A stretch of DNA of 64,000 nt from Deltaproteobacteria bacterium (GCA_040218735.1 JAVJQW010000049.1:77821-141820); one strand, 5' to 3'. Positions 2,241 to 21,695 are shown, counted from the stretch's first letter. Numbers and translations are program-made. Notes: a model not told the origin generated them from the sequence alone.

Positions 2241-2666
2241 TCAGTGGCAGCCTTCGAAGATCACGTCGCCTGAGACCACCACGCGCTGCATCGCGTTGTT
2301 CTCGTCGATGTACGAATGATCGCAGTCGATCTTTGCGTCGCCGTCGAGCGCGACGACGTCGTTGATGCGGGTGTTGGAGTCGAGGATGGTCCCGGTTGCA
2401 CACGCGCCGAGGCGCGGCCCCATCTGGCGGCCGGCGGGGAAGAACGAGACCTCGGTGATCTCGGTGCCGAGGCTGTCTCGGTAGAGGCGGACGAGGCGGT
2501 CGTCGGTGGTCACGAGGTCGACGCCGTCGAAGCCCTTCGGCTCGAGCGACTCACAGCGGTCGAGCTCGGCCGTCGTGCCGTCGATGGTGAGGGTGCCTTC
2601 GACGGACGATCCGCAGGCGGTCGCGAGTGCGATGAACGAGAGGAAGGCGGGTGCGGTCCACTTCAT
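2241..2666 (-). CDS. Lipoprotein, function unknown
   Basis: ATG at 2666 (revcomp) gives MKWTAPAFLSFIALATACGSS, a signal peptide with a lipobox Cys. It lies inside ORF 2241..2720. Confidence 0.6.
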   Translation of the reverse strand: MKWTAPAFLSFIALATACGSSVEGTLTIDGTTAELDRCESLEPKGFDGVDLVTTDDRLVRLYRDSLGTEITEVSFFPAGRQMGPRLGACATGTILDSNTRINDVVALDGDAKIDCDHSYIDENNAMQRVVVSGDVIFEGCH

Positions 2667-2730
2667 GGACCTCATCGTCGGGCAACGAAGCGTCGGTCGC
2701 GAACGCGTGCGAGCGGGCACGCGACGGCGC

Positions 2731-3585: not shown

Positions 3586-4602
3586 GCGGGGAGCCTACCG
3601 GACGCACGGTGGCCGCTCCACGTCGTGACGGGTTTCCTCGGGAGCGGGAAGACCACGCTGATCGCGCACCTCCTCGAATCCCCCGCGGCGTCGGGCACCG
3701 CGGTGATCGTGAACGAGGTCGGCGACGTGTCGATCGACGACCGCCTCGTGGCGCACGTGACCGAGGACGTGCAGGTGCTCGCGTCGGGCTGTCTGTGCTG
3801 CACGCTCCGCGACGATCTCGCGGGGGCGATCGAGCAGCTGCACACCGCGTCCGTAGAGGCGGGGCGGGCGATAAGCCGTGTGGTCTTGGAGACGAGCGGG
3901 ATCGCGGACCCCGCGCCCATCGTGCACTCCGCCGCGCGGGATCCGCGGCTCGCCGCGCGGCTGCGCGTCGCGGGGGTCGTCGCGGTCGTCGATGCCTCGC
4001 GCGCGTTGACGTTGCTCGACACGCAGCCGGAGGTCGCGCGTCAGATCGACATCGCGGACCACGTCGTCCTCACGAAGGAGGACGTCGCGCCCGAGGGGGC
4101 CGTCGAAGCGATCGAGGCGCTGCTCACCGAACGTTACCCGGGGCGGGGGATCGAGCGGGGCCCCGCGGCGCTGCTCGTCGGTGCGCCGACGTTGACCAGC
4201 CGCGCCGAGGCGGCCGGCTGGCTCGCGCCGCTGCACGACGGCGACGCGGCCGTGGACCGACGGACGATCGATCTGCCGAGCCCGGTGTGCCTCGACGCGC
4301 TCGCGCTGTGGCACCGCATGGTGACGAGCCTCGACGGCCTTTCGCTGCTCCGCATCAAGGGGATCGTAGAGGCCGACGGCGCGCGCTGGGTGATGCAGTC
4401 GGCGCAGCACGCGGTGTTCGAGCCGCGTCCGCTGGCGGGGGCGCCCGAAGCGTGGTCGGGCTCGCGCCTCGTGGTGTTGAGCCGCGGGATGCCGAAGCCC
4501 GCGCTCGATCGGCTCGAGGAGGCCGCCGTCCTCGCCGCGCGCGGTACAAGGCGTCGACCCGTTCGGCAATCGGCTGGAATTACTGGCTCCAGACCTCGGT
4601 GA
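3556..4602 (+). CDS. COG0523/CobW-family GTPase (putative zinc metallochaperone)
   Basis: P-loop VVTGFLGSGKTTLI. Motifs CLCCTLRDDL (CxCC) and ETSGIADP are typical of the CobW/YjiA/ZigA family. Candidate starts are GTG 3550, GTG 3556 and GTG 3625. The part of the 698-aa ORF upstream of 3550 is antisense to the amidohydrolase and I reject it. Confidence 0.8.
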   Translation: MRVDQETRAHAGSLPDARWPLHVVTGFLGSGKTTLIAHLLESPAASGTAVIVNEVGDVSIDDRLVAHVTEDVQVLASGCLCCTLRDDLAGAIEQLHTASVEAGRAISRVVLETSGIADPAPIVHSAARDPRLAARLRVAGVVAVVDASRALTLLDTQPEVARQIDIADHVVLTKEDVAPEGAVEAIEALLTERYPGRGIERGPAALLVGAPTLTSRAEAAGWLAPLHDGDAAVDRRTIDLPSPVCLDALALWHRMVTSLDGLSLLRIKGIVEADGARWVMQSAQHAVFEPRPLAGAPEAWSGSRLVVLSRGMPKPALDRLEEAAVLAARGTRRRPVRQSAGITGSRPR

Positions 4603-4648: not shown

Positions 4649-6259
4649 GTGGTATTCATGTCCCACATGGACCGTCGCCCCTGGGCCCTCGCGCTCGCCG
4701 TCCTCGCGGCGTGTTCGCAGAAGGCCGAAGACCCGCCCATCGTGCTCACCGAGCTCCCGGACGTGGCGCCGGCCGAGGCGCACCTGACGCGCCTCACGGC
4801 CACGCAGTACCGCGCCGCGATCACGGACGTGCTCGGCGAAGGCCTCGCGCTGCCGCCGCAGCTGGAGCCGGATCTGCCGTCGTCCGGGCTGCTGTCGGTC
4901 GGGGCGTCGGAGTCGACGATCTCCGCGTGGGGGGTCGAGCAGTACGAAAACGGCGCCTTCTCGATCGCCGCGCAGATCATGGACGACGAGACGCGTCGCG
5001 CCGCGCTCGTGCCGTGCACGCCGCAGGGCACCGTCGACGCCGCGTGCACGACGGCGTTCGTGGAGCAGGTCGGCCGTCGTCTGTGGCGTCGCCCGCTCGA
5101 GACCGATGAGCGCGACGCGCTGGTCGCCGTCGCGAACGAAGCGGCGATGACCCTCGACGACTTCTACGCGGGGCTGGAGTTCGCGCTCGCGGGGCTGCTC
5201 CAGTCGCCGAACTTCCTCTTCCGCGTCGAGCTCGGCGAGAGCGGGCGCTACGACGACTGGGAGATGGCGTCGCGGCTGTCGTTCTTCCTGTGGAACACGG
5301 TGCCGGACGAGGCGCTCCTCGACGCCGCCGCCGCGGGTGCGTTGAGCACCGCCGAGGGGCTCGCCGCGCAGGCGCGCCGGATGATCGACGACGAGCGCGC
5401 GCGCGACGGCGTGCGGCAGTTCTTCACGGACATGTACGAGCTGTACGAGCTCGACGCGCTCGCCAAGGACCCGACGCTGTTCGTTCACTTTTCGACGGAC
5501 GTCGGCGGGTTCGCGCGGGAGGAGACGTTGCGGCTGGTCGAGTACATCGTCTTCGAGAAGGACGCCGACTACCGCGAGCTGATCACCACGAACGAGACGT
5601 TCGTGAACCGGCACCTCGCTTCGATCTACAGCGTCCCCGCCGCTTCGCGGGAGGGCTTCGCGAAGGTGACGCTGCCGCGCTCCTCGGGCCGGCGCGGGGT
5701 GCTCGGGCACCTGTCGTTCCTCGGCTTGCAGTCGCACCCGGCGGCGTCGTCCGCGGTGCTGCGCGGGTTGTTCGTGCGGAAGGTGCTCCTGTGCCAGGAG
5801 ATTCCGCCGCCCCCCGTGGACGTGAACACGGCGCTCCCGGAGCCGACCGAGGTCGCGCCGACGCTGCGCGAGCGGAACAAGATCCACCTCGAGAACCCGA
5901 GCTGCGCGCAGTGCCACAACTTCATGGATCCGATCGGGCTGGGGTTCGAGAACTTCGACGGCCTCGGTCGGTGGCGTGAGAAGGACAACGGCGCGCTGAT
6001 CGACGCGAGCGGCGACCTCGACGGCAAGCCGTTCACGGACGCGTGGGAGATGGCCGAGGTCGTGCGTGAGCACGAAAACGTCGGCATCTGCCTGACGCGT
6101 ACGCTGTACCGCTACGCGACGTCCCACGTGGAGCAGGCGGACGAGGGGCAGCTGATCGTGGCGCTGTCCAAGCGGTTCGAGGAGCAGGGCTACCGGATCA
6201 AGGCGCTCCTGTTCGACATCGTGACGAGCCCCGGGTTCGCGAAGGTCGAGGTGCAGTGA
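4649..6259 (+). CDS. DUF1592/DUF1588/DUF1585-like (planctomycete-type PSD/PSCyt) protein with CxxCH motif; lipoprotein-type signal
   Basis: Alternative ATG starts at 4658 and 4667 give MDRRPWALALAVLAACS (lipobox). C-terminal CAQCHNFMDPIGLGFENFDGLGRWRE is the heme-like motif these families carry. It is followed directly by a DUF1552-like gene with a 4-bp overlap. Confidence 0.8.
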   Translation: MVFMSHMDRRPWALALAVLAACSQKAEDPPIVLTELPDVAPAEAHLTRLTATQYRAAITDVLGEGLALPPQLEPDLPSSGLLSVGASESTISAWGVEQYENGAFSIAAQIMDDETRRAALVPCTPQGTVDAACTTAFVEQVGRRLWRRPLETDERDALVAVANEAAMTLDDFYAGLEFALAGLLQSPNFLFRVELGESGRYDDWEMASRLSFFLWNTVPDEALLDAAAAGALSTAEGLAAQARRMIDDERARDGVRQFFTDMYELYELDALAKDPTLFVHFSTDVGGFAREETLRLVEYIVFEKDADYRELITTNETFVNRHLASIYSVPAASREGFAKVTLPRSSGRRGVLGHLSFLGLQSHPAASSAVLRGLFVRKVLLCQEIPPPPVDVNTALPEPTEVAPTLRERNKIHLENPSCAQCHNFMDPIGLGFENFDGLGRWREKDNGALIDASGDLDGKPFTDAWEMAEVVREHENVGICLTRTLYRYATSHVEQADEGQLIVALSKRFEEQGYRIKALLFDIVTSPGFAKVEVQ

Positions 6260-7575
6260 TGAAGCTGTCCAGGCGCACGTTGCTCAAAGGCGCGCTCGGC
6301 GGCGCGACGGTGACCGTGGGGTTGCCGGCGCTGGAGTGCATGTTGAACACCCACGGCACCGCGCTCGCGAACGGGACGCTGCCGAAGCGGTTCGGGATCT
6401 GGTTCTGGGGGAACGGTGTGCTCCCCACGCAGTGGGTGCCGACGGGCGAGGGCACGGAGTGGACGCTGTCGGATCAGCTCTCGCCGCTCGCGGACGTGAA
6501 GGACGACATCTCCGTCGTCAGCGGGATGTCGGTGAAGACCGGCAACGCGATCCCGCACGGCTCGGGCCCAGGCGGGATCTTCTCGGGCGCGCCGCTGATC
6601 CTGCAGGGCGGGGAGGAGTACACGTTCTCCACGCCGAGCATCGACCAGTTCATCGCGCGGGAGATCGGCGGCGAGACGCGCTTCCGTTCCCTGGAGCTCG
6701 GCGCGAAGCCGGGGCCGGGGCTGTCGTTCAACGGACCGAACAGCAAGAACCCGCCGGAGTCCTCGCCGCGCCGGTTCTTCGACCGCATCTTCGGCGGCAA
6801 CTTCACGCTGCCGGGTGACGACCCGACGCCGGACCCGCGGCTGAGGCTGCGCCGGAGCGTGCTGGACGCGGTGATGGGCGACGTCGGTCGTTTGAACGCG
6901 CGGCTGTCGATGCACGACAAGCAGCGCCTCGATCAGCACCTCACGGGCATTCGCGATCTCGAGCGGCGCCTGCAGCGCCTCGAAGAGAACCCCCCTTCGC
7001 TCGAATCGTGTGCGCTCCCGGATCGGCCGGCGGAGACGTTCCCGGACGTCGACGGGCGGCCGCCGATGCCCGAGATCGCGCGGGCGATGGCGGACGTGTT
7101 GGCGTTGGCGCTCGCGTGTGACCAGACGCGGGTCTTCTCGTTCTGGTTCACGTACCCGGTGAACAACGTGCTGTTCCCCGGGATGCCCGCGGGGCACCAC
7201 CGCCTGACCCACGACGAGCCGGGGGAGCAGCCGATGGTGAACGACATCGTCAAGCTGATCACCACGGAGCTCGCGTACTTCGTCGCGCGCCTCAAGAGCA
7301 TCCCGGAGGGCGACGCCACGCTGCTCGACAGCTGCGCGGTGCTCGCGACGTCCGACACCTCTTGGGGCCGAAACCACACGCTCGACGACTACCCGATCGT
7401 CATCGCGGGCAACGCGTGCGGCGCGCTGAAGAAGGGCGTGCACTACCGCTCGCCGTCGAACGAGAACGCCACGATGGTGTTGTTGTCGCTGGTGCGCGCG
7501 ATGGGGATTCCGGCGGCGGAGTACGGCGCGGAGGCCGGGCACGTCGACCGCAGCCTGGGGGCGATCGAAGCATGA
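6256..7575 (+). CDS. DUF1552-like Tat-signal protein, partner of the DUF1592-like gene
   Basis: MMKLSRRTLLKGALGGATVTVGLPALE is a twin-arginine signal. ATG 6256 overlaps the upstream stop (ATGA). Stop TGA at 7573-7575. Confidence 0.8.
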   Translation: MMKLSRRTLLKGALGGATVTVGLPALECMLNTHGTALANGTLPKRFGIWFWGNGVLPTQWVPTGEGTEWTLSDQLSPLADVKDDISVVSGMSVKTGNAIPHGSGPGGIFSGAPLILQGGEEYTFSTPSIDQFIAREIGGETRFRSLELGAKPGPGLSFNGPNSKNPPESSPRRFFDRIFGGNFTLPGDDPTPDPRLRLRRSVLDAVMGDVGRLNARLSMHDKQRLDQHLTGIRDLERRLQRLEENPPSLESCALPDRPAETFPDVDGRPPMPEIARAMADVLALALACDQTRVFSFWFTYPVNNVLFPGMPAGHHRLTHDEPGEQPMVNDIVKLITTELAYFVARLKSIPEGDATLLDSCAVLATSDTSWGRNHTLDDYPIVIAGNACGALKKGVHYRSPSNENATMVLLSLVRAMGIPAAEYGAEAGHVDRSLGAIEA

Positions 7576-8390
7576 GGCGCTTCACGTGGACGTTGGTGTT
7601 CGGGCTCGCCGCGTGCGGCGGGACGGCGGTCGAGCCGGGGCCGACGCGGTCTTCGGTGTTCAGCGTGGTGTCGTTCGAGCGGGAGGCGGACGGTGTGTCG
7701 GCGGGGATGAACCTCGACGGCTACGTCAGCACCACCAACGACGATCGCGCGTGTAAGAAGGAGGACTTCCTCGCGCCGGACGGCACCGAGGGGGTCGACA
7801 ACCAGCTCGCGACGCTGCTCCCGCTGATCGATCTCGTGGGCGAGAACGCGGTGGAGGAGATCCTCCAGATCGCGGTCGACGAAGGGCGCCTGCTCATCGT
7901 AGCGGACCTCGCGATAGCGGAGGACGGCACGGCGACGGTCGACATCCTGCGCGGGCAGGACGTCCCACTGCTCGGCACGGACGGACGCATCCTCGGCGGG
8001 CAGACGCTCGGGCTTTCGGACGAGCCCCCGCTGGGATCGACGGAAGGCGCGATGGTCGACGCGGATACACTCGAGACCGCGCCGTTCAACCTGCGCTTCC
8101 CGGTGCTCGTCTTCACGCAGCTGTACGAGGTCACGTTCGAGGACGCCGTGGTTCGGTTCGAGCTGGACGAAGCGGGCCACGTGAAGAGCGGCCTCATGGC
8201 CGGCGGTGTGCCGATCGTGGAGCTGATCGACCTGTTGGAGACGGCCGCGAACTTCGGTCAGGACTTCGCGGATCTCTTCGGCGACGCCGTGCGTGAGTCC
8301 GGCGACCTCGCGCGGGCGTCCGACGGCACCTGCCAGAACATGTCGGCGTCGATCTCCTTCGAGGCGGTCCCGACGTTCAAGTTCAGGTAG
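7572..8390 (+). CDS. Lipoprotein, function unknown (third gene of the operon)
   Basis: ATG 7572 overlaps the upstream [20 protein letters not shown] is a lipoprotein signal. Acidic secreted protein. Confidence 0.65.
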
Positions 8391-8400
8391 GCTGGGGCGC

Positions 8401-8784
8401 ATGAACGACGACGCGCCGGACAACGACGACAAGAGCCTGACGCGCGCCTTCTTCGAGGACCGGATCCCCCGCGCGATCTTCGACAACCGCACGATGTTCG
8501 AGCTGCTGCGGGGGAGCATCTGCATCGCCGTGAAGGACGAGGGGGCCTGGACGCTGCGGTTCGGTTCCACGAACCCGGGGTTCTTCACCGAGGAGCTCGA
8601 CGAGTCCGCGGACTGCGTCTTGGAGTTCGAGCGGGTGGCGTTCGAGAAGGTGCTCCGGAGCGAGCCGCTCGAGCCCCAGGACGAGCCTCGGATGTGGGGC
8701 GAGGACAAGATGCTCAAGGCGTTCGGGAAGCTCCTGGACCAGGGCGCCAAGGGGCAGCTCGGCATCCGCACTTCGAGGGAATGA
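8401..8784 (+). CDS. Small SCP2-like (sterol-carrier fold) protein, tentative
   Basis: 127 aa beginning MNDDAPDNDDK. Weak SCP2-like features. Coupled to the next gene by an ATGA overlap. Confidence 0.5.
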   Translation: MNDDAPDNDDKSLTRAFFEDRIPRAIFDNRTMFELLRGSICIAVKDEGAWTLRFGSTNPGFFTEELDESADCVLEFERVAFEKVLRSEPLEPQDEPRMWGEDKMLKAFGKLLDQGAKGQLGIRTSRE

Positions 8785-9269: not shown

Positions 9270-10547
9270 TCACGCGGGCGGGTTGAGCGCGTCGATCGAA
9301 CGCTCGGTGCGGTCGAGGTCGCCGCCGAAGGTGCGCATCAGCGCGCGGTGCACGTCCTGACGCTGGTCGGTGCAGATGAAGCCGCGCTCCGCCGTACGGC
9401 CGCGCGACAGGTAACGGCTGACCGCCGCGTACGTCGTGCGGATGGCCGTGGCCTCCGCCTGGTTGCCCTGGGCCTCCTGAGCCGACGCGCGGCGCTCGAC
9501 GTCGCGCGGGCCGTTGATGCTGCGGCGACCGCCGTCGTAGAGGAGCTCCATCGCGTAGGCGACCTTCGACGCAAACGCCGCTTCGCTGCGGAAGTTGGCG
9601 GACGTGTCGATGTCGTTGATGCGCTGCATCCGGGTGCCGGTCAGGAGCGCGTCGGCGTTCGAGCTGTCGGAGCGCGCCGAAGCGATCTCGTCACGCGTCA
9701 GGTAGCCCTTGTCGCCGGCGCGGCGCTCGTAGATGCCGTTGAGGTCCTTCTCGAGCTTCGCGAGGTTCGCCGCCGTCGGGACGAACGCGAGGACGCCGTT
9801 CGACGTGGACTGGTTGCGGTGCGCGCCGTAGCGGGCGGCCTGCAGGAGCACCTGGACGATCGAGTCGGAGATGCCGTTCGCGGACATCGTGCGCTCGAGC
9901 GAGCCGGGCTGGCCGCCCTCGGACGCGAAGGTCACGACCTCACGCATCTGACGCGTCCAGCGGGTCTCGCTGTTCGAGGCGGGCTCGAGCGTGGTCGCCT
10001 TCGCGAGGAGCGCGACGATCGCCTTGTTGGCCGAGCGGATGTCGTCCAGCGTCTTGGCGCCGGCCGGAATCGACGGGGCCACCGGAGCGGTCGGCGCGGT
10101 CGGGGCGGCGGGGGCGCTCGGCGCGGTCTGGCCGGCGTTGCTGCTGGGGCGGCTCGGCTTGCTCGAGGAGCCCGGGGCGCCGTCGGTCGCGTGGAAGCGG
10201 CCCATCTGCTGCAGGAAGTAGTCGCGCGACTTCGTGGACGTGAAGTCGACCGCGCGCTCCTTCTTGCCCGTGACCTCCATGGACACGTTCTGGCGCATGT
10301 CGTCCGCCTTCACGTAGAGCGGGCGGAGCGCGGCGGCCTCGGCCTTCGACCAGCGGCGGGCGCCGGGCGTGACGGCGCGGTCACGGAGCTGCGGGGCGCG
10401 GACGAGCTCGTCCGTGTCCTTCTCGCTCCAGCCGCCGCGGAGGTTGTTGTACGTGAGTGTCGCGACGCTCTTGTCCGCGCGAGCGCTCTCGAACTGGGGG
10501 TTCGCGGCGCCGATTTGAGTCTTGACGGTGGTCGTGCTGAAAGCCAT
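9270..10547 (-). CDS. Hypothetical cytoplasmic protein (425 aa) with a Pro/Ala-rich linker; no recognisable domain
   Basis: MAFSTTTVKTQIGAANPQFE with a GAGGAGA Shine-Dalgarno 7 nt upstream. Diverse composition (K, N, Q, S, T, Y). Internal APSAPAAPTAPTAPVAPSIPAG linker. The overlapping + strand ORF 9348..10595 is Arg/Ala-rich antisense junk. Divergent from the 10846 gene. Confidence 0.7.
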   Translation of the reverse strand: MAFSTTTVKTQIGAANPQFESARADKSVATLTYNNLRGGWSEKDTDELVRAPQLRDRAVTPGARRWSKAEAAALRPLYVKADDMRQNVSMEVTGKKERAVDFTSTKSRDYFLQQMGRFHATDGAPGSSSKPSRPSSNAGQTAPSAPAAPTAPTAPVAPSIPAGAKTLDDIRSANKAIVALLAKATTLEPASNSETRWTRQMREVVTFASEGGQPGSLERTMSANGISDSIVQVLLQAARYGAHRNQSTSNGVLAFVPTAANLAKLEKDLNGIYERRAGDKGYLTRDEIASARSDSSNADALLTGTRMQRINDIDTSANFRSEAAFASKVAYAMELLYDGGRRSINGPRDVERRASAQEAQGNQAEATAIRTTYAAVSRYLSRGRTAERGFICTDQRQDVHRALMRTFGGDLDRTERSIDALNPPA

Positions 10548-10716
10548 TTCTTCGTCTCCTCAGGGCGATTGAGCCCTGTTCCTCCTGGCACTTGAGCAGA
10601 CGGTGCGTCCTCGGCGTGCCTGATAGCGTTCGGTGCAATGTTCGGTGCAACTGTCGGTAGGAGACTTACTTGCTCCCACCTTGCAGGGATATGTATCGCG
10701 GGGTGAGACAATTTGT

Positions 10717-10739
10717 TGTGTGACAGAACACGTCACACA
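10717..10739. promoter_or_regulatory. Perfect inverted repeat TGTGTGAC-N7-GTCACACA in the divergent promoter region (candidate operator)
   Basis: Read directly from the sequence: 10717-10724 TGTGTGAC, spacer AGAACAC, 10732-10739 GTCACACA. It lies 107 bp upstream of ATG 10846 and 170 bp upstream of the 10547 start. Confidence 0.5.
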
Positions 10740-10845
10740 GGGTCCGTGTTCAGGAAGTCACAGGAAACGCTCGGGTTTCCTCCACCAAAAAAATTTGGGC
10801 GCCCTACGGACGAACCCCGCAGCGGTTCCGCGCGATAATGTAGGC

Positions 10846-13800
10846 ATGCCGCGCCCGGGCCCCAACGCGCCGCTCTCGTGGCAGCGGCCGACCGTCCCGA
10901 CGCGGTCGGAGGCCGAGGCGGTCACGTCCGGGGTCGAGACCGAGCTCCTCGAGCGCGTCGACGAGCTCAAGGAGCGCATCGGGACGGGGCAGGAGATGGG
11001 CGGGGAGGCGGGTGGCCCCGACGTCAACCTGCGCCGTGACGCGCTGTCGGCGCTCCGCGCGAAGTACGACGCGCAGGCGCTCGAAGCGCGGCTCCCCAAG
11101 CGGGGCCGCCGGGTGTTCACGAACCTCGTCAAGGACCTCGCGTGGATCGACGCCGCGGAGCGCCAGTCTTTGACCGACGGCAAGCCGTTCGACTTCTCGT
11201 GGTCGAAGAACCCGATGAGCACCGCCTCCGTGCTCACCCAACTCGCGGCCAAGCGCGCGACGTTCGCGGCCGAGCAGACGGCGGCCATCCAAGCCAACCC
11301 CGCGCTCCCCTACGATGCGAGCAACGACTCGCTCCTCGGGCCGCTCCAGGTCGACGACAAAAATCTCGCGGGGCAGATCCTCGCCGACACCCTCATTCAG
11401 TTCCGAGCCAAGCGCCGCAGCGAAGCGCTGATGGACCAGTCCCTCACGCCCGACCCGGAGCGCCGCTCGCAGGGGCGCATCGGATCGTCGGGCACGGTCA
11501 GCGCGTTCGAGCAGCGCCTCGCCGCCCAGTCGATCGACTCGGGGCGCGGCCTCGCCCCGCAGCGGCTGTACGCGCTGGGGCGGCTGACGATCGGCGGGGC
11601 GGTCGCCGGCTCCGTCAACGGGATCTACAAGGGGCGCAACTCGGTCGGATCGTTGCCGGGGTTCATGGGGCGCGGCGTAGCGTACGACCCCGTCGCCGAG
11701 GGGGCGGGCTTTTCGGCCAACTTCCACGACGCCATCCACAAGAGCTACTCCGCGAACACCCCGGCGGCGGTCGAGCACTACGTCAAACACCGCGCGTTCA
11801 CGGGCGGCGACGTCGAGGACCGCCCGTTCATCATGCGCGACCTCGTCGATGCGGCGCTCGAGCGCGACGTCGACAAGGCGCGTTTGATCCTGGACGGCGT
11901 CGAGCGCCGCTTCGGCTACACGGTGCCGGGCCTCGACGGCATCACGAAACACGAGGACCTGAAGAAGGCGATCGCGAAGCACTTCAAGAAGAACACGGAT
12001 CTCCCCGGCCTCAAGACCGCGAAGCTCGTCGGCGTCCTCAAGGCGCTCTCGCTGATCTCGACGACGTACCAGGCCATCGTGCTCGACCGGCCCACGGTGC
12101 GTGAGCTGCGTGGGTCGATGTTCTTCGCGAAGAGCGCCGAGCTCGACGTCGCGCGGCTCGTCGCCGCGATGGAGAAGGGCGACACCACGGCGCAGATCGA
12201 AGCGGTCGGGCGCGCGCGCAAAGCGCTGAAGAAGGCGTTCTTCGAGCTCGACGACGGCTACGAACGGCAGATGCTGTGGCGCCTCGATCGTCGCATCGAG
12301 CTGCTCGCGACGGAGCTGATCGGCACCTCCGTCGACCGCGTGCTCTCGGGGGAGGCGGACGTCGGCGAGGCCCTCGTCGCGCTCCGCTCCGCGCTCCGCA
12401 ACGTCAACGCGAGCGGCTACGACGCGCTCCGCGGACGCAAGAAGACGGCGCCGGTCGAGGACCTGTCGAAGCTCGAGAAGGAGGTCGACCGCCTGATCGG
12501 CTCCGGCGAGACAACCGTCGAGGACCTCCGGGCGCTGATGACGAAGGTCTTTGCGTCGGCGACCGAAGTGACGGACGCGATGTCGATCTACTTCGCGCGC
12601 CGGGAGTCGGCGATTCGGTTCTCGCCCATCGACGTCGAGCTCGACCCGGACTTCACGGGCAACCTCGTGAAGGAGTCGCCGCTGCAGCACCTCCTCAGCC
12701 TGTCGAACCACCTGCGCACGCTCGACATGAAGACGGACATCAGCGCCGAGCAGATCCGCTTCGTCGGCGGGATGCGGGTGCTGAACTCCACGGGGCCGCG
12801 CGTCTACAAACGCATCCTCGTCGCGAAGACCCCTGAGGCGCTCAAGCGCTACGCGCCGACCGTCGACGACCTGTGCGTCGTGCGCTCCGCCGACGAGAAG
12901 AACCTCGTGTACGACGGCGGCCTCGTGCTCGACACCAAGGACGCCGGACCGGGCCTCGCGCACGCCGCGGTGTTCGCGAAGGGGCACGGCATCAACGCGA
13001 TCGCGCTGCCGAACCTCGACGAGGCGATCGAGACGTTCTTCGACAAGGCGAAGGGCGACGGACCGCACCTCGGCTTCTACGTCGACCCGCGCGCCGAGAG
13101 CTTCGTGATCAAGCCGCTCTCCGCTGCGGTGAACGAGGGTCTGGTGAAGCCGGCGCAGATCGACACACTTCGCCCGGGGTTCAACCTGGAGATCGACGTG
13201 TTCGACGTGAACGACGCCGCCGAGCGCGTGCGGATCGCGGAGCACACGCTGCACCGCTCCGACCAGCACGAGACCCGGAGCATCGAGCTCATCGCGCCGG
13301 ACCTCGACGACGCGCTCGACCTCGGCGGACCCGCGTCGTTTTCGAAGCTCGGCGCTTTCTCGATCGATCAGGTGCGGCAGGTGAGCGGGGAGAAGGGCGC
13401 GGTGCTCGTGGACCTCGCGAAGTCGGAGCGTCTGAAGGCGCTCGGCGTGAAGGTCCCGGACGGCGGCTCGGTCCCGCCGTTCTCCGTGGCTTCGTTGCTG
13501 CTCGAGGCGAAGGTCGGATCGAAGTCGCTCCTCGAGCTGTGGGACGCGGCGCCGGCGCGCGCTGGGTTCGACGATCCGAAGAAACGCCCGACGCAGCTGA
13601 AGAACCTGAAGAAGACCACCGCGACCGCGCTGAAGGGCGCGTTGCTCGACGGCAACAACCCCACCGCGCTGGGGCAACGCATGCTCGCCCAGCTCTCGGA
13701 CGCCCTGGATCTGAAGGACACCGACGACTGGATCTTCCGTTCGAGCTTCACCGCGGAGGACCGCCCCAACAAGAGCGGCGCCGGTCAGTACGACTCCGTG

Positions 13801-14310
13801 CTCGTCGCCGCGAAGCCGAAGCGCACCCTCGCCAAGCGCCGCCTGGAGGCGATCGCCGACGTGATCGCTTCGGCCTGGAACCCCTCCGCGGTCGAGAGCA
13901 ACCTCGCCGCGAACGTTCCGTTGGATCTCGTGTGGCCGAGCATCGTCGTGCAGCACGCGATCGACGACCCAACGGTGAGCGGCGTCGGTGTGTCGCGCGG
14001 CGCGACGGGGGGCTTCGGGGAGGTGAGCTACCAGGCCACCCCCGAGTTCGGCGGCGGCGTGGCCGGCGGTGACTGTGAAGAGGGCACCCTCGGAGCGCGG
14101 GACCAACGTGTCCTGACCGGCTTCGGCGGGCAGGACACGTCACTCCTCACGCCGAAGCAGCAGGGGCTGCTGCGCGACGCGATCCTCGCCATCGAGGAGG
14201 ACTTCCACGAACGCATCGAGCCGGGGCAGGGACACGCGGTCGACGTGGAGTGGGCGTTCGTGAAGGACCAGCTCTACATCCTACAGGCGCGCGTCATCAC
14301 CGGCGTGTAA
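10846..14310 (+). CDS. Large (1154 aa) dikinase-like protein: unknown N-terminal ~690 aa, then a PEP-utilizing phosphohistidine (swivel) domain, then a C-terminal PPDK_N-type ATP-binding domain
   Basis: ATG 10846, in frame with ORF 10633..14310 and downstream of the AT-rich spacer. The His-domain motif ILVAKTPEALKRY...GGLVLDTKDAGPGLAHAAVFAKGHGINAIAL parallels ILVAEDLTPSD...G(I/V)[25 protein letters not shown]. The C-terminus parallels PPDK_N: GEKGAVLVDLAKSERLKALGVKVPDGGSVP matches GGKGANLGEL..GxPVPxGFxI, FRSSFTAEDRPNKSGAGQYDSVL matches RSSATAEDLPDASFAGQ, VQHAIDDPTVSGVGVS, and VDVEWAFVKDQLYILQARVITGV matches DIEWAxxdGkLyILQxRPIT. Confidence 0.75.
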   Translation: MPRPGPNAPLSWQRPTVPTRSEAEAVTSGVETELLERVDELKERIGTGQEMGGEAGGPDVNLRRDALSALRAKYDAQALEARLPKRGRRVFTNLVKDLAWIDAAERQSLTDGKPFDFSWSKNPMSTASVLTQLAAKRATFAAEQTAAIQANPALPYDASNDSLLGPLQVDDKNLAGQILADTLIQFRAKRRSEALMDQSLTPDPERRSQGRIGSSGTVSAFEQRLAAQSIDSGRGLAPQRLYALGRLTIGGAVAGSVNGIYKGRNSVGSLPGFMGRGVAYDPVAEGAGFSANFHDAIHKSYSANTPAAVEHYVKHRAFTGGDVEDRPFIMRDLVDAALERDVDKARLILDGVERRFGYTVPGLDGITKHEDLKKAIAKHFKKNTDLPGLKTAKLVGVLKALSLISTTYQAIVLDRPTVRELRGSMFFAKSAELDVARLVAAMEKGDTTAQIEAVGRARKALKKAFFELDDGYERQMLWRLDRRIELLATELIGTSVDRVLSGEADVGEALVALRSALRNVNASGYDALRGRKKTAPVEDLSKLEKEVDRLIGSGETTVEDLRALMTKVFASATEVTDAMSIYFARRESAIRFSPIDVELDPDFTGNLVKESPLQHLLSLSNHLRTLDMKTDISAEQIRFVGGMRVLNSTGPRVYKRILVAKTPEALKRYAPTVDDLCVVRSADEKNLVYDGGLVLDTKDAGPGLAHAAVFAKGHGINAIALPNLDEAIETFFDKAKGDGPHLGFYVDPRAESFVIKPLSAAVNEGLVKPAQIDTLRPGFNLEIDVFDVNDAAERVRIAEHTLHRSDQHETRSIELIAPDLDDALDLGGPASFSKLGAFSIDQVRQVSGEKGAVLVDLAKSERLKALGVKVPDGGSVPPFSVASLLLEAKVGSKSLLELWDAAPARAGFDDPKKRPTQLKNLKKTTATALKGALLDGNNPTALGQRMLAQLSDALDLKDTDDWIFRSSFTAEDRPNKSGAGQYDSVLVAAKPKRTLAKRRLEAIADVIASAWNPSAVESNLAANVPLDLVWPSIVVQHAIDDPTVSGVGVSRGATGGFGEVSYQATPEFGGGVAGGDCEEGTLGARDQRVLTGFGGQDTSLLTPKQQGLLRDAILAIEEDFHERIEPGQGHAVDVEWAFVKDQLYILQARVITGV

Positions 14311-14319
14311 GCTCGGTGG

Positions 14320-15402
14320 GTGACCGAGCCGATCAACCTGCTGGAGCTGGAAGCGCTCGCGAAGAAGAAGCTCGCGCAGAACGCGTTCGACTACTACGTC
14401 AGCGGCGCGCACGACGAGATCACCCTGCGCAACAACCGCGCGGCGTTCGATCGAATCGAGCTGATGTACCGCGTGCTCGTCGACGTCTCGACGCGTTCAT
14501 TGGCGACGACCGCGTTGGGCCTGCCGATCGCGTTCCCGGTGATTGTCGCGCCGACGGCGTTCCACCGGATGGCGTGCGCCGACGGTGAGCTCGCGACCGC
14601 GCGCGCCGCGTCGAACGCGGGCACGGTCATGATCCTCAGCTCGCTGTCGAACACCCGCGTCGAGGAGGTCTGCGCCGAAGCCGATGGCCCGGTGTTCTTC
14701 CAGCAGTACATCTACAGGGACCGCGGCGCGACGAAGGCGCTGATGGAGCGCGCGGAGGCGGCGGGGGCGAAGGCGTTCGTCATCACCGTCGACGCCCCGA
14801 AGCTCGGCACCCGCGAGCGCGACGTGCGCAATCGCTTCCACCTCCCCGAGGGGCTCTCCGTCGAGAACATGGTCGCGGAGGGCTACGGCGAGGTCGCGGC
14901 CCCGCCGAACGACTCGGGGCTGTCGGCGTACTTCGCGTCGCTGATCGATCCGTCGTTTTCGTGGAAGGACCTCGACTGGCTGCGCTCGGTGACGTCGCTG
15001 CCGATCGTCCTCAAGGGGATCGTCCGCGAGGACGACGCAAAGCGCGCCGCCGAAGCGGGTGTGCAGGGCATCGTCGTCTCGAACCACGGCGGCCGACAGC
15101 TCGACACCTCCATCGCGACCATCGACGCGCTCCCCGGCGTGGTCGACGCCGTCGAGGGACGCGTGGAGGTCTTCATGGACGGTGGCGTCCGCCGCGGTAC
15201 GGACGTCCTCAAGGCGCTCGCCTTCGGCGCGCGCGCGGTGTTGATCGGGCGACCGATCCTCTGGGGCCTCGGCTACGCCGGTGAGGCGGGCGCGTCGCGC
15301 GCGCTCGAGATGCTGAAGGAGGAGCTCGACCTCGCGATGATGCTCGCCGGCGCGCCGACGGTCGCCGACGTCACCCGCGATCTCATCCGCGTTTCTTCGT
15401 GA
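14320..15402 (+). CDS. lldD: FMN-dependent alpha-hydroxy-acid dehydrogenase (L-lactate dehydrogenase/glycolate oxidase family)
   Basis: GTG start 14320. AFDYYVSGAHDEITLRNNRAAFDRIEL, the family's N-terminal signature. SNHGGRQLD is the active-site motif. The length matches the family. Confidence 0.85.
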   Translation: MTEPINLLELEALAKKKLAQNAFDYYVSGAHDEITLRNNRAAFDRIELMYRVLVDVSTRSLATTALGLPIAFPVIVAPTAFHRMACADGELATARAASNAGTVMILSSLSNTRVEEVCAEADGPVFFQQYIYRDRGATKALMERAEAAGAKAFVITVDAPKLGTRERDVRNRFHLPEGLSVENMVAEGYGEVAAPPNDSGLSAYFASLIDPSFSWKDLDWLRSVTSLPIVLKGIVREDDAKRAAEAGVQGIVVSNHGGRQLDTSIATIDALPGVVDAVEGRVEVFMDGGVRRGTDVLKALAFGARAVLIGRPILWGLGYAGEAGASRALEMLKEELDLAMMLAGAPTVADVTRDLIRVSS

Positions 15403-15856
15403 ACGCGGCGAGGCCCTTCATCGCCTGACCGCGCACCTTGTTCTGTACGATCGGGCTCCAGCCGAGGAGCACACCCATGGGGCCGAGCGCCATGCGCGTC
15501 CACGCCCACATGTCGAACGTGTCGCGGTGCACCTTGATGAGGCCGTCCTCGATCTCGAAGCGCGCGTCGATCTTGTTGTGCACGAAGCGCCCGGTCGCGG
15601 AGAACGTGTACTTCGCCTCCCAGTGCGCGGTGACGATGCGTTCGCTCGCAACGACGTCGGAGTGGGTGACGACGAGATCCTTCCCGCGCTCGACGAGCAT
15701 CCGCCACATGTTGCGAGCGCCCGCACCGTCGAGGTTCGTGAAGACCGGGTCCGAGAACTTCGCGTCGTCGCGGTAACACGACGCCATCGTCTCGGCGTCC
15801 TTGTTCGCAAACGCTTCGTAGAATTTGTGGATCAGCTGCGCGTGGTCCGACGACAT
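15383..15856 (-). CDS. SnoaL-like / NTF2-like (ketosteroid-isomerase fold) protein
   Basis: 157 aa, MSSDHAQLIHKFYEAFANKDAETMASCY... matches the typical SnoaL_2 N-terminus. Overlaps the 3' end of the lldD-like gene by 20 bp (convergent). Confidence 0.7.
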   Translation of the reverse strand: MSSDHAQLIHKFYEAFANKDAETMASCYRDDAKFSDPVFTNLDGAGARNMWRMLVERGKDLVVTHSDVVASERIVTAHWEAKYTFSATGRFVHNKIDARFEIEDGLIKVHRDTFDMWAWTRMALGPMGVLLGWSPIVQNKVRGQAMKGLAAFTKKRG

Positions 15857-15865
15857 GCCGGGCCT

Positions 15866-17362
15866 CTATAGCCAGCGTTCCGCGAAGTGTGAAGCGAGGC
15901 CCATGATCGTGTGCTGCGGGTTCACGCCGAGGTTCGTCGGAATCACCGACGCGTCCGCGACGTACAGGCCCTCGCAGTCGAAGACCTTGCCCGTCGCGTC
16001 GCACACGCCGCTCGAACGGTCGCGCCCCATCGCGCAGCCCCCGAACAAGTGGGACAGGATGGCCACGTAGGATCGCGGCTCGAGCGGCGCGTCGAGGAGT
16101 GTGTCGAGCTCGTCCGGTCCGATGTCGTACGCGAACCCGTGGATGAACGGCACCACGCGCTTCGCGCCGGCCGAGAAGTGCATCGACGCGACGAAGTGGA
16201 TCCCGCGCCGCAGCCGCTCCATGTCGGCGCGGTCGAGTGTGTACTTCACGACCGGCTTGTCGAACATCCCGTTCGACACCGTGCCCGTCGACTCCGCGCG
16301 CACCGCGTGGACCCACATCGCCATGTGCCGGTACTCGGCGAGGCGGGCCATGAGCTTCTTGCCGCCGCCGCCGACACGCGACGCCACGAGCTCCGGGGGG
16401 ATGGAGAGCGTCTCGAGCTTGAGCCCCGGTGACTCGCGAAACTTCGTGCTCGCCCAGCCCTGCGTGGCGCCGATGTTCATGTCCACGACCTCGTCGTAGA
16501 GCCCCATCACGCCCGTGCCGGGGTGCGCGCGGAAGTACTTGCCGAGCGCCGGGAGCTTCACGCCGGAGCGCTGGAGCAGGGCGGGGCTGTGCGTCGCCGA
16601 GGCCGCGATGACCACGCCGCGCTTGGCGCGCAGCTCGAAGGTCCCGCCGCGGCGTCGCGTCGAGGGGTGCTTGAAGCGGCCCGTCACGCCGACCGCGCGG
16701 CCCCCTTCGAAGCGAACACGTTTGACCGGCGCGCACGAGACGACGTGTCCGCCGCGCTCCATCACCTCCGGGATCCACGCGAGGTTCGTGCTCTGCTTGC
16801 GACCCTTCTTGCACCCCTGCAGGCACTGCCCGGTGCCTTCACAGTCCTTCGCGTAGCGGCGCATCACGTGGCCGCCGTAACCGAGCCGTTCGTCCGCGAG
16901 GATCGCGAGCTCGTTGGAGCGCCCGAGCGAGGGCGGCGGCACCTCGTTCACCGACAGCTCCGACTCGATCCGGGTCTCGTGTTCGAGGACGTTGCGCTCG
17001 AACTCGGCGTCGCCGACGCCGTAGTCGTCGCGCCACTGCGCGAAGATGTCGCCGGGCGTGGTCACGGAGATCGCCGAGTTGATCACCGTCGTCCCGCCTA
17101 CCGCGCTCGCCTGCACGACGGGCCACAGCGCACGCCCGCGCGTGATGGTGCTGCCCCAGTCGTCCATGAGGTCGCGCATCGCGCCGTACACCGAGACGGG
17201 GTAGTGGTCCGGGTCGCGCCACGCGCCGGCTTCGACGAGCACCACCGAAGCCCCGCCGCGCGCGAGGGTCAGCGCCGCGGCCGAGCCGCCGGCGCCGCTG
17301 CCGACGACGACGAAGTCCGCGTCGAGCTCGACGTCGCCGTCCGAATAGGCGGTGTGGCTCAT
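15866..17362 (-). CDS. GMC-family FAD-dependent oxidoreductase
   Basis: ATG at 17362 gives MSHTAYSDGDVELDADFVVVGSGAGGSAAALTLARGGASVVLVEAG, the FAD-binding GxGxxG motif. The 586-aa ORF's N-terminal 88 aa are Arg-rich and I reject them. Confidence 0.85.
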   Translation of the reverse strand: MSHTAYSDGDVELDADFVVVGSGAGGSAAALTLARGGASVVLVEAGAWRDPDHYPVSVYGAMRDLMDDWGSTITRGRALWPVVQASAVGGTTVINSAISVTTPGDIFAQWRDDYGVGDAEFERNVLEHETRIESELSVNEVPPPSLGRSNELAILADERLGYGGHVMRRYAKDCEGTGQCLQGCKKGRKQSTNLAWIPEVMERGGHVVSCAPVKRVRFEGGRAVGVTGRFKHPSTRRRGGTFELRAKRGVVIAASATHSPALLQRSGVKLPALGKYFRAHPGTGVMGLYDEVVDMNIGATQGWASTKFRESPGLKLETLSIPPELVASRVGGGGKKLMARLAEYRHMAMWVHAVRAESTGTVSNGMFDKPVVKYTLDRADMERLRRGIHFVASMHFSAGAKRVVPFIHGFAYDIGPDELDTLLDAPLEPRSYVAILSHLFGGCAMGRDRSSGVCDATGKVFDCEGLYVADASVIPTNLGVNPQHTIMGLASHFAERWL

Positions 17363-17790
17363 GTCGTCCGCCACCGCGGCGGGTCGGCCGGGTAGGGCTC
17401 GAGCGCGAGCCGCTCGCGCGTCGTCGCGTGCTGGCCCCAGCACAGGCCGCCGGCCATCTTCAGCAGGAACACCAGCTGCCGCACGAGGTACAGCCGATGG
17501 CCCGCGAGGCGGTCCGCGTGTCGGTCGAGGGTGTCCGCAGACAACCAGAACGACGGTACGGGTCGGTACACCGTGAACAGCGGCGTCACCGTGAACACGA
17601 CCGCGCCCGCCACGATCCCGAGCCACATCAAACCCGACGCTTCACGTCGGTAACGGTCGACGAAGCCGTCGACGTCCATGCTCGCGATCCCGGGGAGCGC
17701 GTCAGACTCCGGAAAGAATGCGAGCAGCGCTCTCTTCACCAGCCAGCGCACGCCCCGTGATTCCTGACCGACTTGCGGGTCCTTTTCCAT
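17359..17790 (-). CDS. Small membrane protein coupled to the GMC oxidoreductase (putative anchoring subunit)
   Basis: ATG 17790 gives MEKDPQVGQESRG... with one TM segment (GLMWLGIVAGAVVFTVTPLF). Its stop overlaps the GMC start (ATGA at 17359-17362). Confidence 0.55.
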   Translation of the reverse strand: MEKDPQVGQESRGVRWLVKRALLAFFPESDALPGIASMDVDGFVDRYRREASGLMWLGIVAGAVVFTVTPLFTVYRPVPSFWLSADTLDRHADRLAGHRLYLVRQLVFLLKMAGGLCWGQHATTRERLALEPYPADPPRWRTT

Positions 17791-19940: not shown

Positions 19941-21695
19941 ATGGACCGGCGGCGCCTGGGTGAGAGCCTCTACACCGCGGGCACCCTCGCGCTCCCCTTG
20001 GGGATCGGCGCGGCGGGGGGGTACTGGATCGCGGACGCCGGTGCGCGGTGGGTCCCGACGACGCTCGGCGCGCTCCTCGTCGTCGGTGTCCTCGGGTTGG
20101 CGTTGCTCGCGGCCGGGAGCTCCCTGACCGCCACACAGCGCTCGCCGAAGACCAAGCGGTTCGTCTTCTTCACGCTCCTCGCGTTCCTGGCGGCGGTGCT
20201 GCGACTCGGCGTCTGGTGGGCGTCGACCCCGACGCCCCTCGCGACGCGCGACCACGCCGACTTCCTGCGGGTCTTCCGGGACGACGTGAAGCAGGTCGCG
20301 GCGCTCGCGCACACGCTCGACGACGCCGGCGGGACGATCGCTGCGAGTGTCCCCGTGGAGGGGGTGCTGTCGGCGGACGCGGAGAAGGTCGTCGCCGACG
20401 CTTGGGCGGGCTACGTGCACGCGTCGTTCGCGCTCGACCAGGTGCGGCGCTACTACGAGGACTACTACAAGCTCGACCTGTCGAGGTTGGAGCGGACGCG
20501 GCACACGCTCTCGTTCCTGCTGACGTTCGCGGCGGAGCTCGCGCTGTTCGAGCGGACGTTGTTGTTGGAGTCGGCGGTGTCGAAGAACGCGAGCGTCGAG
20601 AAGTTCCTCGACCTCCCGCGTCCGCAACACGACTTGCCGGGCGACAGCTACTCGACGGCGAAGGAGGAGCTGCTCGGCGTGAGCGACTACTCGCGCATCG
20701 TCGCGGGCAAGAAGTACATGGCGTACCTCGCGACGCTACACGAGGTAGATCGCGAGGTGCGCGCGGCGGGGTTCGACGCGCTGTGGACGGACGTCACGGC
20801 CCGGCTCGAACGCCTCGCGGAGCACCCGAAGGTCGCGGTGGCCTTCGACTCGGTGACGAGTGACTTCGCGCCGATTCAGCGGAAGGTGAAACACTTCGCG
20901 TTCCCCGTGCAGAAGGAGGTCGCGGAGTGGATGGGCGACACGCGGGTGCGCCGGGCCGGGCACTACCTCGTGGACGACGCGCTGCAAGCCAAGTTGCAGA
21001 CGAAGCTCCGCCCGGGCGACGTGATGCTCGCGCGGAAGAACTGGTACCTGTCGAACATCGGCCTCCCGGGCTTTTGGCCGCACGCCATGGTGTACGCGGG
21101 GACGCGCGCGCAGATCGCCGAGGCGTTCGACGAGGACCCGGAGGTGAGGGCGTACGTCGCTTCGTTGGGGCACGCCGGGACCTTCTCGAGCTTCCTGGAG
21201 ACGCGTTTCGTCCGGGTGTGGCGCTTGCTCGACGACCAGCCGATCGTCGAGGCGGTCTCGGAGGGCGTCGTGGTCAGCGACATGCACCACGCGGCCGGGG
21301 ACTACGTCGCGGCGCTGCGCCCGCGGCTGCGCCCGGTCGACAAGGCGAAGGCGATCGTTAGGGCGCTGTCGCTACTCGGGCGCCCGTACGACTTCGACTT
21401 CGACTTCGCGACCGACCACGCCGTGGTCTGCACGGAGCTGGTCTGGCGAAGCTACCGCGCCCACGACGGCGAGCCGGGACTGGAGCTTCCGCTGTCGCGG
21501 ATCGCGGGGCGCTTGACGCTGCCGGCGAACGAGATCGCGCGGGTGTTCCGGGACGAGGGGGACGGGGCCGCGCGGCAGTTCGACTTCGTGGCGTTCGTGG
21601 AGGGGCGGGAGCACCAGCAGGACGCGGTGGAGGCCGATGCGGAGGCGCTGGCGGCGACGGTGGATCGGTCGAAGTGGGACTTCGGGCAGCCTTAG
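19941..21695 (+). CDS. Membrane-anchored YiiX/DUF830-like permuted papain-fold (NlpC/P60-related) protein
   Basis: Two or three N-terminal TM helices. C-terminal LRPGDVMLARKNWYLSNIGLPGFWPHAMVYAG ... HAVVCTELVWRSY has His before Cys, as in permuted papain-like hydrolases. Confidence 0.6.
   Translation: MDRRRLGESLYTAGTLALPLGIGAAGGYWIADAGARWVPTTLGALLVVGVLGLALLAAGSSLTATQRSPKTKRFVFFTLLAFLAAVLRLGVWWASTPTPLATRDHADFLRVFRDDVKQVAALAHTLDDAGGTIAASVPVEGVLSADAEKVVADAWAGYVHASFALDQVRRYYEDYYKLDLSRLERTRHTLSFLLTFAAELALFERTLLLESAVSKNASVEKFLDLPRPQHDLPGDSYSTAKEELLGVSDYSRIVAGKKYMAYLATLHEVDREVRAAGFDALWTDVTARLERLAEHPKVAVAFDSVTSDFAPIQRKVKHFAFPVQKEVAEWMGDTRVRRAGHYLVDDALQAKLQTKLRPGDVMLARKNWYLSNIGLPGFWPHAMVYAGTRAQIAEAFDEDPEVRAYVASLGHAGTFSSFLETRFVRVWRLLDDQPIVEAVSEGVVVSDMHHAAGDYVAALRPRLRPVDKAKAIVRALSLLGRPYDFDFDFATDHAVVCTELVWRSYRAHDGEPGLELPLSRIAGRLTLPANEIARVFRDEGDGAARQFDFVAFVEGREHQQDAVEADAEALAATVDRSKWDFGQP

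Follow-up and report, generated by a model that had tools for sequence, protein, structure and literature searches.

A 64,000-nucleotide stretch of DNA from Deltaproteobacteria bacterium (GCA_040218735.1, JAVJQW010000049.1:77821-141820; here referred to as the window) carries a gene whose 1154-amino acid product is, judging from its sequence and predicted structure, highly likely to be a phosphotransferase of the histidine-swivel dikinase type. An N-terminal helical domain, a swivel-like domain with a conserved histidine (H706), and an ATP-grasp domain that is conserved and retains its ATP-site residues are observed in it directly, in that order. We give a probability of roughly 60% to the fuller reading that the protein is a single-chain swivel dikinase of the superfamily that includes phosphoenolpyruvate (PEP) synthase, PPDK, rifampin phosphotransferase (RPH), and GWD, and that it acts on a small acceptor molecule of hydrophobic or lipid-like character. 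The pointer to such an acceptor is a small gene of the SCP2 family that lies near the dikinase-like gene. A first-pass annotation of the window had already placed the 1154-amino acid protein at 10846-14310 (+ strand) and a divergently transcribed gene for a 425-amino acid protein, here called the partner, at 9270-10547 (- strand), and both sets of coordinates and sizes are correct. Also borne out was the anatomy that it described, in which an N-terminal domain is followed by a His swivel domain and then by PPDK_N at the C terminus, and a TIM barrel is lacking.

The C-terminal domain is an ATP-grasp domain with an intact nucleotide site

Pfam places PF01326 (PPDK_N) at residues 848 to 1152 of the protein (E value of 4.3e-20, 72.7 bits against a cut-off of 27), covering profile positions 5 to 310 of 328, and every homologue tested also matches. 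The score exceeds the gathering threshold and upholds the PPDK_N-type ATP-grasp domain that the first-pass annotation had recognized at the C terminus. Nothing significant was found by Pfam in residues 1 to 840, and the PEP/pyruvate TIM barrel (PF02896, PEP-utilizers) is absent from the Pfam matches to the whole protein. In the predicted model, the ATP-grasp fold superimposes on solved dikinase nucleotide-binding domains (Foldseek E value of 9e-10 to 5hv1), and 2dik, the structure of the R337A mutant of PPDK, is among the structure matches. Residues D1133, E1135, Q1147, and R1149 (D-x-E...Q-x-R) fit a spacing that we take to be that of D321, E323, Q335, and R337 in PPDK.

The remaining ATP-site residues can be read from an alignment with RPH-Lm, in which mutagenesis showed that K22, R117, T136, and E297 position ATP (PMC4844700). 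The last three align with R965, S984, and E1135, and K850, which belongs to the GxKG motif where the Pfam match begins, is the probable counterpart of K22. All four residues are invariant in a 12-sequence alignment of the family; in a 28-sequence alignment, S984 is nearly invariant and the other three (K850, R965, and E1135) remain fully so. Their conservation is consistent with the ATP-dependent, His-mediated phosphotransfer that the first-pass annotation had suggested.

Residues 644 to 757 resemble a divergent phosphohistidine swivel domain

The first-pass annotation had proposed that PF00391 would be followed by PF01326 and had regarded profile searches that did not place both in this order as a rejection. 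PF01326 was recovered, whereas PF00391 matched neither the 1154-amino acid protein at an E value of ≤1 nor any of 10 family members, each scanned separately, at an E value of ≤10; by that rule, the result is a rejection. A family hidden Markov model (HMM) of the His region also retrieved no PEP-utilizing enzyme from the PDB sequences and nothing relevant from Pfam. We nevertheless retain the swivel domain because of profile-profile and structural evidence. Using hhalign, we compared the full-length family profile with a canonical swivel profile (n = 27) built from E. coli PpsA and PtsI together with RPH/PEP synthase-like open reading frames (ORFs) of unrelated loci. A single match was obtained, at residues 653 to 759 (score of 43.4, E value of 3.7e-5, probability of 71%; next E value, 0.65), and the catalytic His of the canonical profile is in register with H706 (SH opposite (A/S)H706). 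As controls, 40 column shuffles scored at most 20.5 (E value of 0.079) and the reversed profile scored 14.8.

Of 28 diverse relatives, with identities down to ~21 to 30%, 27 have retained H706. The published motif ahead of the catalytic His is T/S-x-x-G-G-x-x-x-H (PMC12167813), and the window protein reads T697-K-D-A-G701-P-G703-L-A-H706, with the Thr and the Gly pair present and one residue out of register. The more distant of two clades in the family, at ~30% identity to the window protein, has APGGNSH (D-T-x-x-A-P-G-G-N-S-H), which is nearer the canonical GGxTSH. An AlphaFold model built on the 28-sequence alignment (predicted local distance difference test [pLDDT] of 86.5, predicted template-modeling score of 0.82) gives residues 644 to 757 seven strands and three helices, the same element count as the His domain of StGWD1 (PMC13553574). 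In this model, H706 opens a helix (residues 706 to 714), pLDDT is 61 to 90 per 10-residue block, and fold searches returned only ATP-grasp matches. The His loop had a pLDDT of <50 in a first model based on 12 sequences, which the 28-sequence alignment cured; strands of a linker subdomain (780 to 788, 794 to 802, and 810 to 816) are present in both models. From the profile comparison, the conservation of H706, and the model, we conclude that residues 644 to 757 probably form a real but divergent swivel domain. Pfam overlooks such divergent swivel domains, and similar proteins annotated with PPDK_N only may be under-annotated dikinases.

One divergent relative, P0044 (735 amino acids), has no His at the H706 position (SDPDLAACAAGAG) and may be an inactive paralogue or reflect an alignment problem. 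Both this protein and the failure of Pfam to recognize the His domain would be expected if the family were a catalytically dead relic or a scaffold without phosphotransfer. However, the ATP-site residues and H706 are conserved in relatives down to 21 to 30% identity, as purifying selection on catalysis predicts, and this counts against a dead enzyme, which we consider most improbable.

The N-terminal helical domain has no detectable relative outside the family

Residues 1 to 640 are entirely helical in both AlphaFold models. When 1.84 billion cluster representatives were searched with a profile of residues 1 to 840 (the N-terminal domain plus the His region), no more than 56 proteins were retrieved; each is a family member or a fragment, and none gives a bridge to GWD, RPH, or PEP synthase. 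The same profile found nothing among PDB sequences, and hhalign detected no similarity to RPH-like (E value of 0.41) or HpeH-like (E value of 0.088) substrate domains. The first-pass view that a domain with no known relative precedes the two modules is thus upheld for residues 1 to 640 by the Pfam, PDB sequence, and hhalign searches. Several relatives are longer than the window protein: P0021 (2062 amino acids), P0019 (1724), P0050 and P0051 (~1620), and P0032 (1524) have an extra 400 to 900 N-terminal residues with no Pfam family, and these extensions precede the same core of N-terminal domain, His domain, and PPDK_N. Six longer variants were scanned with Pfam, and all have PPDK_N at the end.

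Because the N-terminal domain has no detectable similarity to known substrate-binding domains, a candidate acceptor site was placed in it by conservation. R586 is the sole residue of the domain that is invariant in all 28 relatives, and K609 and D481 are each kept in 27. These three residues are located in the last helices ahead of the His domain, and GWD and RPH have a second active site in the corresponding place (PMC13553574, PMC4844700). By analogy, R586, together with K609 and D481, likely marks a second active site.

The 12-sequence alignment also contains many invariant Arg residues in this domain, along with invariant Asp and Asn. Residues of this kind could bind a polar polymer, which would suit a bacterial glucan or polysaccharide water dikinase, that is, an analogue of GWD or PWD phosphorylating glycogen or another polymer. 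The domain order is identical to that of the plant enzymes, and the element count of the His domain and its link to the helical domain are similar (PMC13553574). However, the protein has no carbohydrate-binding module (CBM), no conserved glycogen or polysaccharide genes lie nearby, the profile of the N-terminal and His domains found no GWD-like protein among the 1.84 billion representatives or the PDB sequences, and the conserved neighbour SCP2 has a lipid-binding fold. We therefore regard a polysaccharide acceptor as improbable.

The architecture recurs in a rare myxobacterial family

A word-indexed search of 5.8 billion proteins yielded 11 clusters, none of them functionally named (three are JGI "hypothetical protein" entries and the rest are unlabelled). 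There are 11 full-length homologues of 1113 to 1158 amino acids, with 43 to 94% identity, and more full-length relatives, with 28 to 47% identity, in metagenome-assembled genomes (MAGs) of Myxococcota. Scanning 185,579 species genomes gave 15 full-length loci, all from MAGs, of which 13 have a title naming Myxococcota, Myxococcales, Myxococcaceae, or "Deltaproteobacteria"; of the other two, one is labelled just "bacterium" and one Pseudomonadota. The family is rare, unnamed, and, among genome matches, essentially myxobacterial. Relative to the window protein, it falls into two clades, one with at least 44% identity and one with ~30%. The first-pass annotation had allowed that a frameshift or assembly error might have misordered the domains; such an artefact is ruled out by the recurrence of the same architecture in >25 independent assemblies.

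The divergently encoded partner is confined to one clade

The 425-amino acid partner could be assigned to no family of Pfam, NCBIfam, or PADLOC, in agreement with the first-pass report of no recognizable domain, and PADLOC found no defence-system match for either protein of the divergent pair. Its C-terminal 260 residues match the product of a 262-amino acid divergent gene in the related locus L001 (37% identity, BLASTP E value of 3e-52). An HMM of this domain matches the window, L001, L005, L007, L013, L014 (two copies), and the cut locus L004, and a cut ORF in L012 falls in the same BLASTP cluster. The divergent arrangement is found in L001, L005, L007, L013, and L014, with an estimated gap of ~80 to 670 bp, while the N-terminal 165 residues of the partner, including a Pro/Ala linker, are confined to the closest relatives. 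Neither the HMM nor the BLASTP clusters place the domain in any locus of the ~30% clade, and the partner family amounts to just 8 clusters among the 5.8 billion proteins.

A constant divergent neighbour is what might be expected of a protein dikinase or regulator, in which the phosphoryl group of His706 is passed to the partner or the enzyme regulates it. VadK of M. tuberculosis provides a precedent for a regulatory derivative of PPDK, since it is PPDK derived, autophosphorylates, and binds other proteins (PMC13400623). The conserved 260-residue domain is always divergently adjacent in the window and in the five loci with this arrangement, and its family is found essentially nowhere else. However, the ~30% clade lacks the partner and has an unrelated ~500-amino acid neighbour, yet it keeps the catalytic residues and the N-terminal domain; in addition, the conserved 640-residue helical domain, with invariant residues of its own, resembles the substrate-binding domain of GWD or RPH. 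We consider a protein dikinase or regulator unlikely. By this comparison of loci, the partner would be a clade-specific accessory and not a universal substrate, which leaves the first-pass suggestion of the partner as substrate weak. Conservation of the divergent pair in related genomes, which had been put forward as a check, holds in the clade of the window and fails in the ~30% clade.

An EF-hand-type loop of canonical form is present in the 262-amino acid partners (L001:7067-7855, L005:5058-5846, and L007:5064-5852, all on the - strand); that of L001, for instance, reads DADKNGVLDTDE. This loop is degenerate in the window partner (AGDK-GYLTRDE), and Pfam EF-hand_1 matches one member with an E value of 0.17. 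L014 has two tandem copies of the partner domain (3517-4590 and 5040-6233, both on the - strand) upstream of the dikinase gene.

A conserved SCP2 gene hints at a possible hydrophobic acceptor

The first-pass annotation had overlooked the small SCP2-family gene, which is the neighbour common to both clades. The product of the window gene matches PF02036 (E value of 4.1e-8, 33.9 bits against a cut-off of 21.3) and the product of the SCP2 gene of L005 (E value of 1e-16), and PF02036 is annotated on neighbours in L001, L005, L007, L061, and L062. Among family loci with enough flanking sequence, 16 of 17, including the window, have an SCP2 gene near the dikinase gene, compared with 0 of 34 control loci (360 kb) bearing other PPDK_N proteins. 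In the ~30% clade, the SCP2 and dikinase genes are direct neighbours with the same orientation: the former shares one base with the dikinase start in L061 and begins 25 nucleotides past the dikinase stop in L062, and L015 to L017 and L020 to L025 have similar arrangements. SCP2 proteins bind hydrophobic ligands. Because the SCP2 gene is the only one that accompanies the enzyme in both clades, and because its products bind such ligands, a lipid-like acceptor is our best guess. A full-text literature search for SCP2 in connection with a dikinase returned nothing relevant.

By analogy with known enzymes, the protein would follow a classical dikinase cycle. ATP would bind the C-terminal ATP-grasp domain (K850, R965, S984, D1133/E1135, and Q1147/R1149), and His706 would attack the beta-phosphate, with the gamma-phosphate leaving as inorganic phosphate (Pi) or being transferred to Pi, to give His706~P and AMP. 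The His domain would then swing to the 640-residue N-terminal helical domain (R586, K609, and D481), where the phosphoryl group would be transferred to the bound acceptor. SCP2 might present or solubilize this hydrophobic or lipid-like acceptor. Domains in this order form a working enzyme in StGWD1 (PMC13553574) and, divided over two proteins, in the HpeH/HpeI pair (PMC12167813), which by analogy supports the dikinase reading.

Several points weigh against a swivel dikinase with a hydrophobic acceptor. The His domain is atypical, as seen from the failure of PF00391 and the one-residue shift of the motif, and the hhalign probability reaches only 71%. The position of the acceptor site in the N-terminal domain is a guess from conservation, and the invariant Arg residues of this domain could instead indicate an anionic, non-lipid substrate. 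The SCP2 link is one of gene neighbourhood. In the clade of the window, the partner separates the two genes: the SCP2 gene lies 1.4 to 2.5 kb upstream of the dikinase gene (measured from ORF boundaries) and is oriented convergently to the partner operon. In L013, no SCP2 gene was seen near the dikinase gene.

Association with SCP2 would also suit an activating ligase like PigC, RedH, or HapC, in which transient O-phosphorylation activates a hydrophobic metabolite, possibly a secondary metabolite, for condensation or elimination. PigC-type enzymes contain the same two domains (PMC13534948), and the ATP-grasp domain has weak, sub-threshold matches to the NCBIfam models of PigC (E value of 1e-6) and RedH (E value of 4e-4). 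However, the NCBIfam models for PEP synthase, RPH, and PigC/RedH touch only the C-terminal domain and fall far under their cut-offs, with PEP synthase and RPH matched at least as strongly as PigC/RedH, and neither clade shows a conserved biosynthetic gene cluster in the surroundings of the gene. An activating ligase is thus an improbable identity for the protein.

If the acceptor is indeed hydrophobic, the locus could be pictured as a Myxococcota-restricted system in which the fused dikinase phosphorylates a lipid- or sterol-like molecule from a dedicated SCP2 carrier by means of a 640-residue domain of new fold. Each clade would have its own add-on for tuning or using the product: one has the EF-hand-like 262-amino acid partner, and the other has a transglutaminase-like (Cys-His-Asp) protein. 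We consider this more detailed scheme possible, if doubtful.

Layout of the locus and other neighbouring genes

The coordinates of the features are given in Table 1. The dikinase frame stays open upstream as far as a GTG at 10633; we favour the start at 10846 because the closest homologue, P0001 (94% identity), likewise has 1154 amino acids, with MPRPGPN as its N terminus. Both promoters are presumably located in the divergent spacer. G+C content is ~69% all along the window, and long antisense ORFs inside both genes, such as 10804-14106 on the - strand, were rejected as genes and attributed to this high G+C content.

Table 1. Features of the window and of related loci. Coordinates are those of the window unless a locus is named; aa, amino acids.
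Feature	Coordinates	Strand	Remarks
Dikinase-like gene	10846..14310	+	1154 aa, stop codon included; ORF and homologues
N-terminal all-helical domain, aa 1-640	10846..12765	+	Candidate acceptor-binding domain
Divergent phosphohistidine swivel domain (predicted), aa 644-757	12775..13116	+	hhalign, conservation, model
H706 codon	12961-12963	+	Inside motif GPGLAHAAVFAKGHG; translation checked
Beta-rich linker subdomain, aa 758-839	13117..13362	+	Conserved P777-G778-x-N780
C-terminal PPDK_N ATP-grasp domain, aa 840-1154	13363..14307	+	K850, R965, S984, D1133, E1135, Q1147, R1149
Divergent intergenic region, 298 bp	10548..10845	.	Between partner and dikinase gene; putative promoters
Partner gene, 425 aa	9270..10547	-	ORF
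Partner conserved C-terminal domain, aa 166-425	9273-10052	-	
Partner N-terminal extension with Pro/Ala linker, aa 1-165	10053-10547	-	Sub-clade specific
Small SCP2-family gene (sterol/lipid carrier-like), 109 aa	8781..9110	+	Pfam PF02036
ORF of up to 163 aa	8293..8784	+	Start uncertain; stop overlaps SCP2 ATG
DUF1592/DUF1588/DUF1595/DUF1585 protein	4649-6259	+	
DUF1552 (HXXSHH) protein	6256-7575	+	4-nucleotide overlap with preceding DUF1592 gene; pair not conserved beside dikinase elsewhere
Flavin mononucleotide-dependent alpha-hydroxy-acid dehydrogenase, SnoaL-like protein, GMC oxidoreductase	14320-17626	+, -, -	Directly downstream of dikinase gene
~500-aa neighbour, ~30% clade	L015:4361-5803	+	
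~500-aa neighbour, ~30% clade	L017:4199-5644	+	
~500-aa neighbour, ~30% clade	L018:266-1981	-	
~500-aa neighbour, ~30% clade	L020:7844-9292	-	
~500-aa neighbour, ~30% clade	L021:3884-5575	-	
~500-aa neighbour, ~30% clade	L022:10255-11889	+	

The 163-amino acid ORF at 8293-8784 and the SCP2 gene may be translationally coupled, since the stop codon of the former overlaps the start of the latter (ATGA at 8781-8784) and the sequence GAGGGA shortly precedes the overlap. The ORF is a weak relative (BLASTP E value of 4e-4 to L005:4358-4759) of a gene of 133 to 143 amino acids that, in sister loci, comes after the partner on the opposite strand. One member of this family matches SCP2 weakly (E value of 0.024), and each locus may contain two SCP2-like genes. 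We rejected the idea that the N-terminal extension of the partner is a fused copy of this neighbour, as the alignment was unconvincing.

The ~30% clade has its own neighbour, which is found in nine loci, encodes ~480 to 560 amino acids, and has no Pfam match. Its product has an invariant C342...H388-G-W...D405-R-T-W, whose spacing we read as that of the Cys-His-Asp triad of transglutaminase or papain-like proteins; Pfam and PDB sequence searches did not confirm a transglutaminase-like reading. That this protein might be a distant homologue of the partner was rejected (hhalign E value of 0.054, probability of 1%). In L062, the gene beside SCP2 carries PF18626 (Gln_deamidase_2), which we take to have a papain-like fold.

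The DUF1592/DUF1552 pair and the dehydrogenase, SnoaL-like, and GMC oxidoreductase genes of the window were sought in the gene tables and conserved neighbour clusters of the related loci and did not reappear there. Pairing of DUF1592 and DUF1552 proteins, as seen upstream, is typical of Planctomycetota and Myxococcota. The oxidoreductase cluster at 14320-17626 could act on hydrophobic alcohols and is not conserved in related loci. Further upstream, an ORF at 2506-4602 (+ strand, start unverified) encodes a CobW/HypB/UreG-type GTPase domain (residues 370 to 540) and CobW_C, preceded by ~360 N-terminal residues with no Pfam match. At 19941-21695 (+ strand), a 584-amino acid ORF encodes a permuted papain-like amidase (Peptidase_C92, YaeF/YiiX family; E value of 5.6e-8).

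Comparison with known dikinases

His-swivel dikinases are a small and mechanistically striking enzyme class, and earlier new members revealed starch phosphorylation, rifampin resistance, the catabolism of phenol and lignin monomers, prodiginine synthesis, and regulation by VadK. The family described here contributes a bacterial single-chain enzyme in which the domains follow the order of the plant GWD type; its large substrate domain resembles nothing detectable, and an SCP2 gene is its conserved neighbour. If the acceptor is hydrophobic, as this neighbour hints, it would be a kind of substrate that our literature search did not find described for the class. Practical value is moderate for a rare family from uncultured myxobacteria that is as yet linked to no phenotype or pathway.

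The architecture, which the first-pass annotation did not recognize, has precedents: its order is known from GWD, equals a fusion of HpeH and HpeI, and is a circular permutation of RPH. In plant GWD, the His domain follows an all-helical central domain, and ATP is bound by the domain at the C terminus (PMC13553574). By published description, the plant and algal enzymes GWD1 and PWD (EC 2.7.9.4/2.7.9.5) share with the myxobacterial protein the linear order, the lack of a TIM barrel, and a His domain of seven strands and three helices, and swivelling dikinase chemistry is presumably shared as well. Unlike GWD, the myxobacterial protein has no CBM45, CBM20, or other Pfam family in residues 1 to 840, and no sequence similarity was detectable beyond the ATP-grasp domain among the 1.84 billion representatives and PDB sequences. 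GWD is a plastid enzyme, whereas this family is bacterial (Myxococcota) and has an SCP2 neighbour.

In the two-component dikinase HpeHI, HpeH contains the substrate and swivel domains and HpeI is the ATP-grasp domain (PMC12167813). The domain order of our protein corresponds to an H-then-I fusion of HpeHI, CreHI, or the phenylphosphate synthase PpsAB. It differs from these in being one polypeptide, in having an N-terminal domain with no profile similarity to HpeH-like substrate domains, in the one-residue shift of its swivel motif, and in the absence of aromatic-catabolism genes nearby. RPH and phenolic phosphate synthetase are further comparable systems; RPH has the order ATP-grasp, substrate domain, swivel, which is circularly permuted here (PMC4844700). 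The NCBIfam model RIF_Ptrans_rph (NF041857) gives 30.3 bits against a cut-off of 999, in the ATP-grasp region only, and the substrate domains are unrelated by sequence (E value of 0.41). PEP synthase and PPDK have a homologous ATP-grasp domain (PF01326) and, distantly, a homologous swivel domain; in contrast, the protein described here lacks PF02896, has another domain order, and scores ≤43 bits with the NCBIfam PEP synthase models, whose cut-offs are ≥598.

Because it has no CBM, has an N-terminal domain with no detectable similarity to theirs, and fails the equivalog HMMs, the protein belongs to none of the GWD, HpeHI-type, or RPH families; by analogy, it most probably works as they do. The domain order is already known, and the new part is the 640-residue substrate domain.

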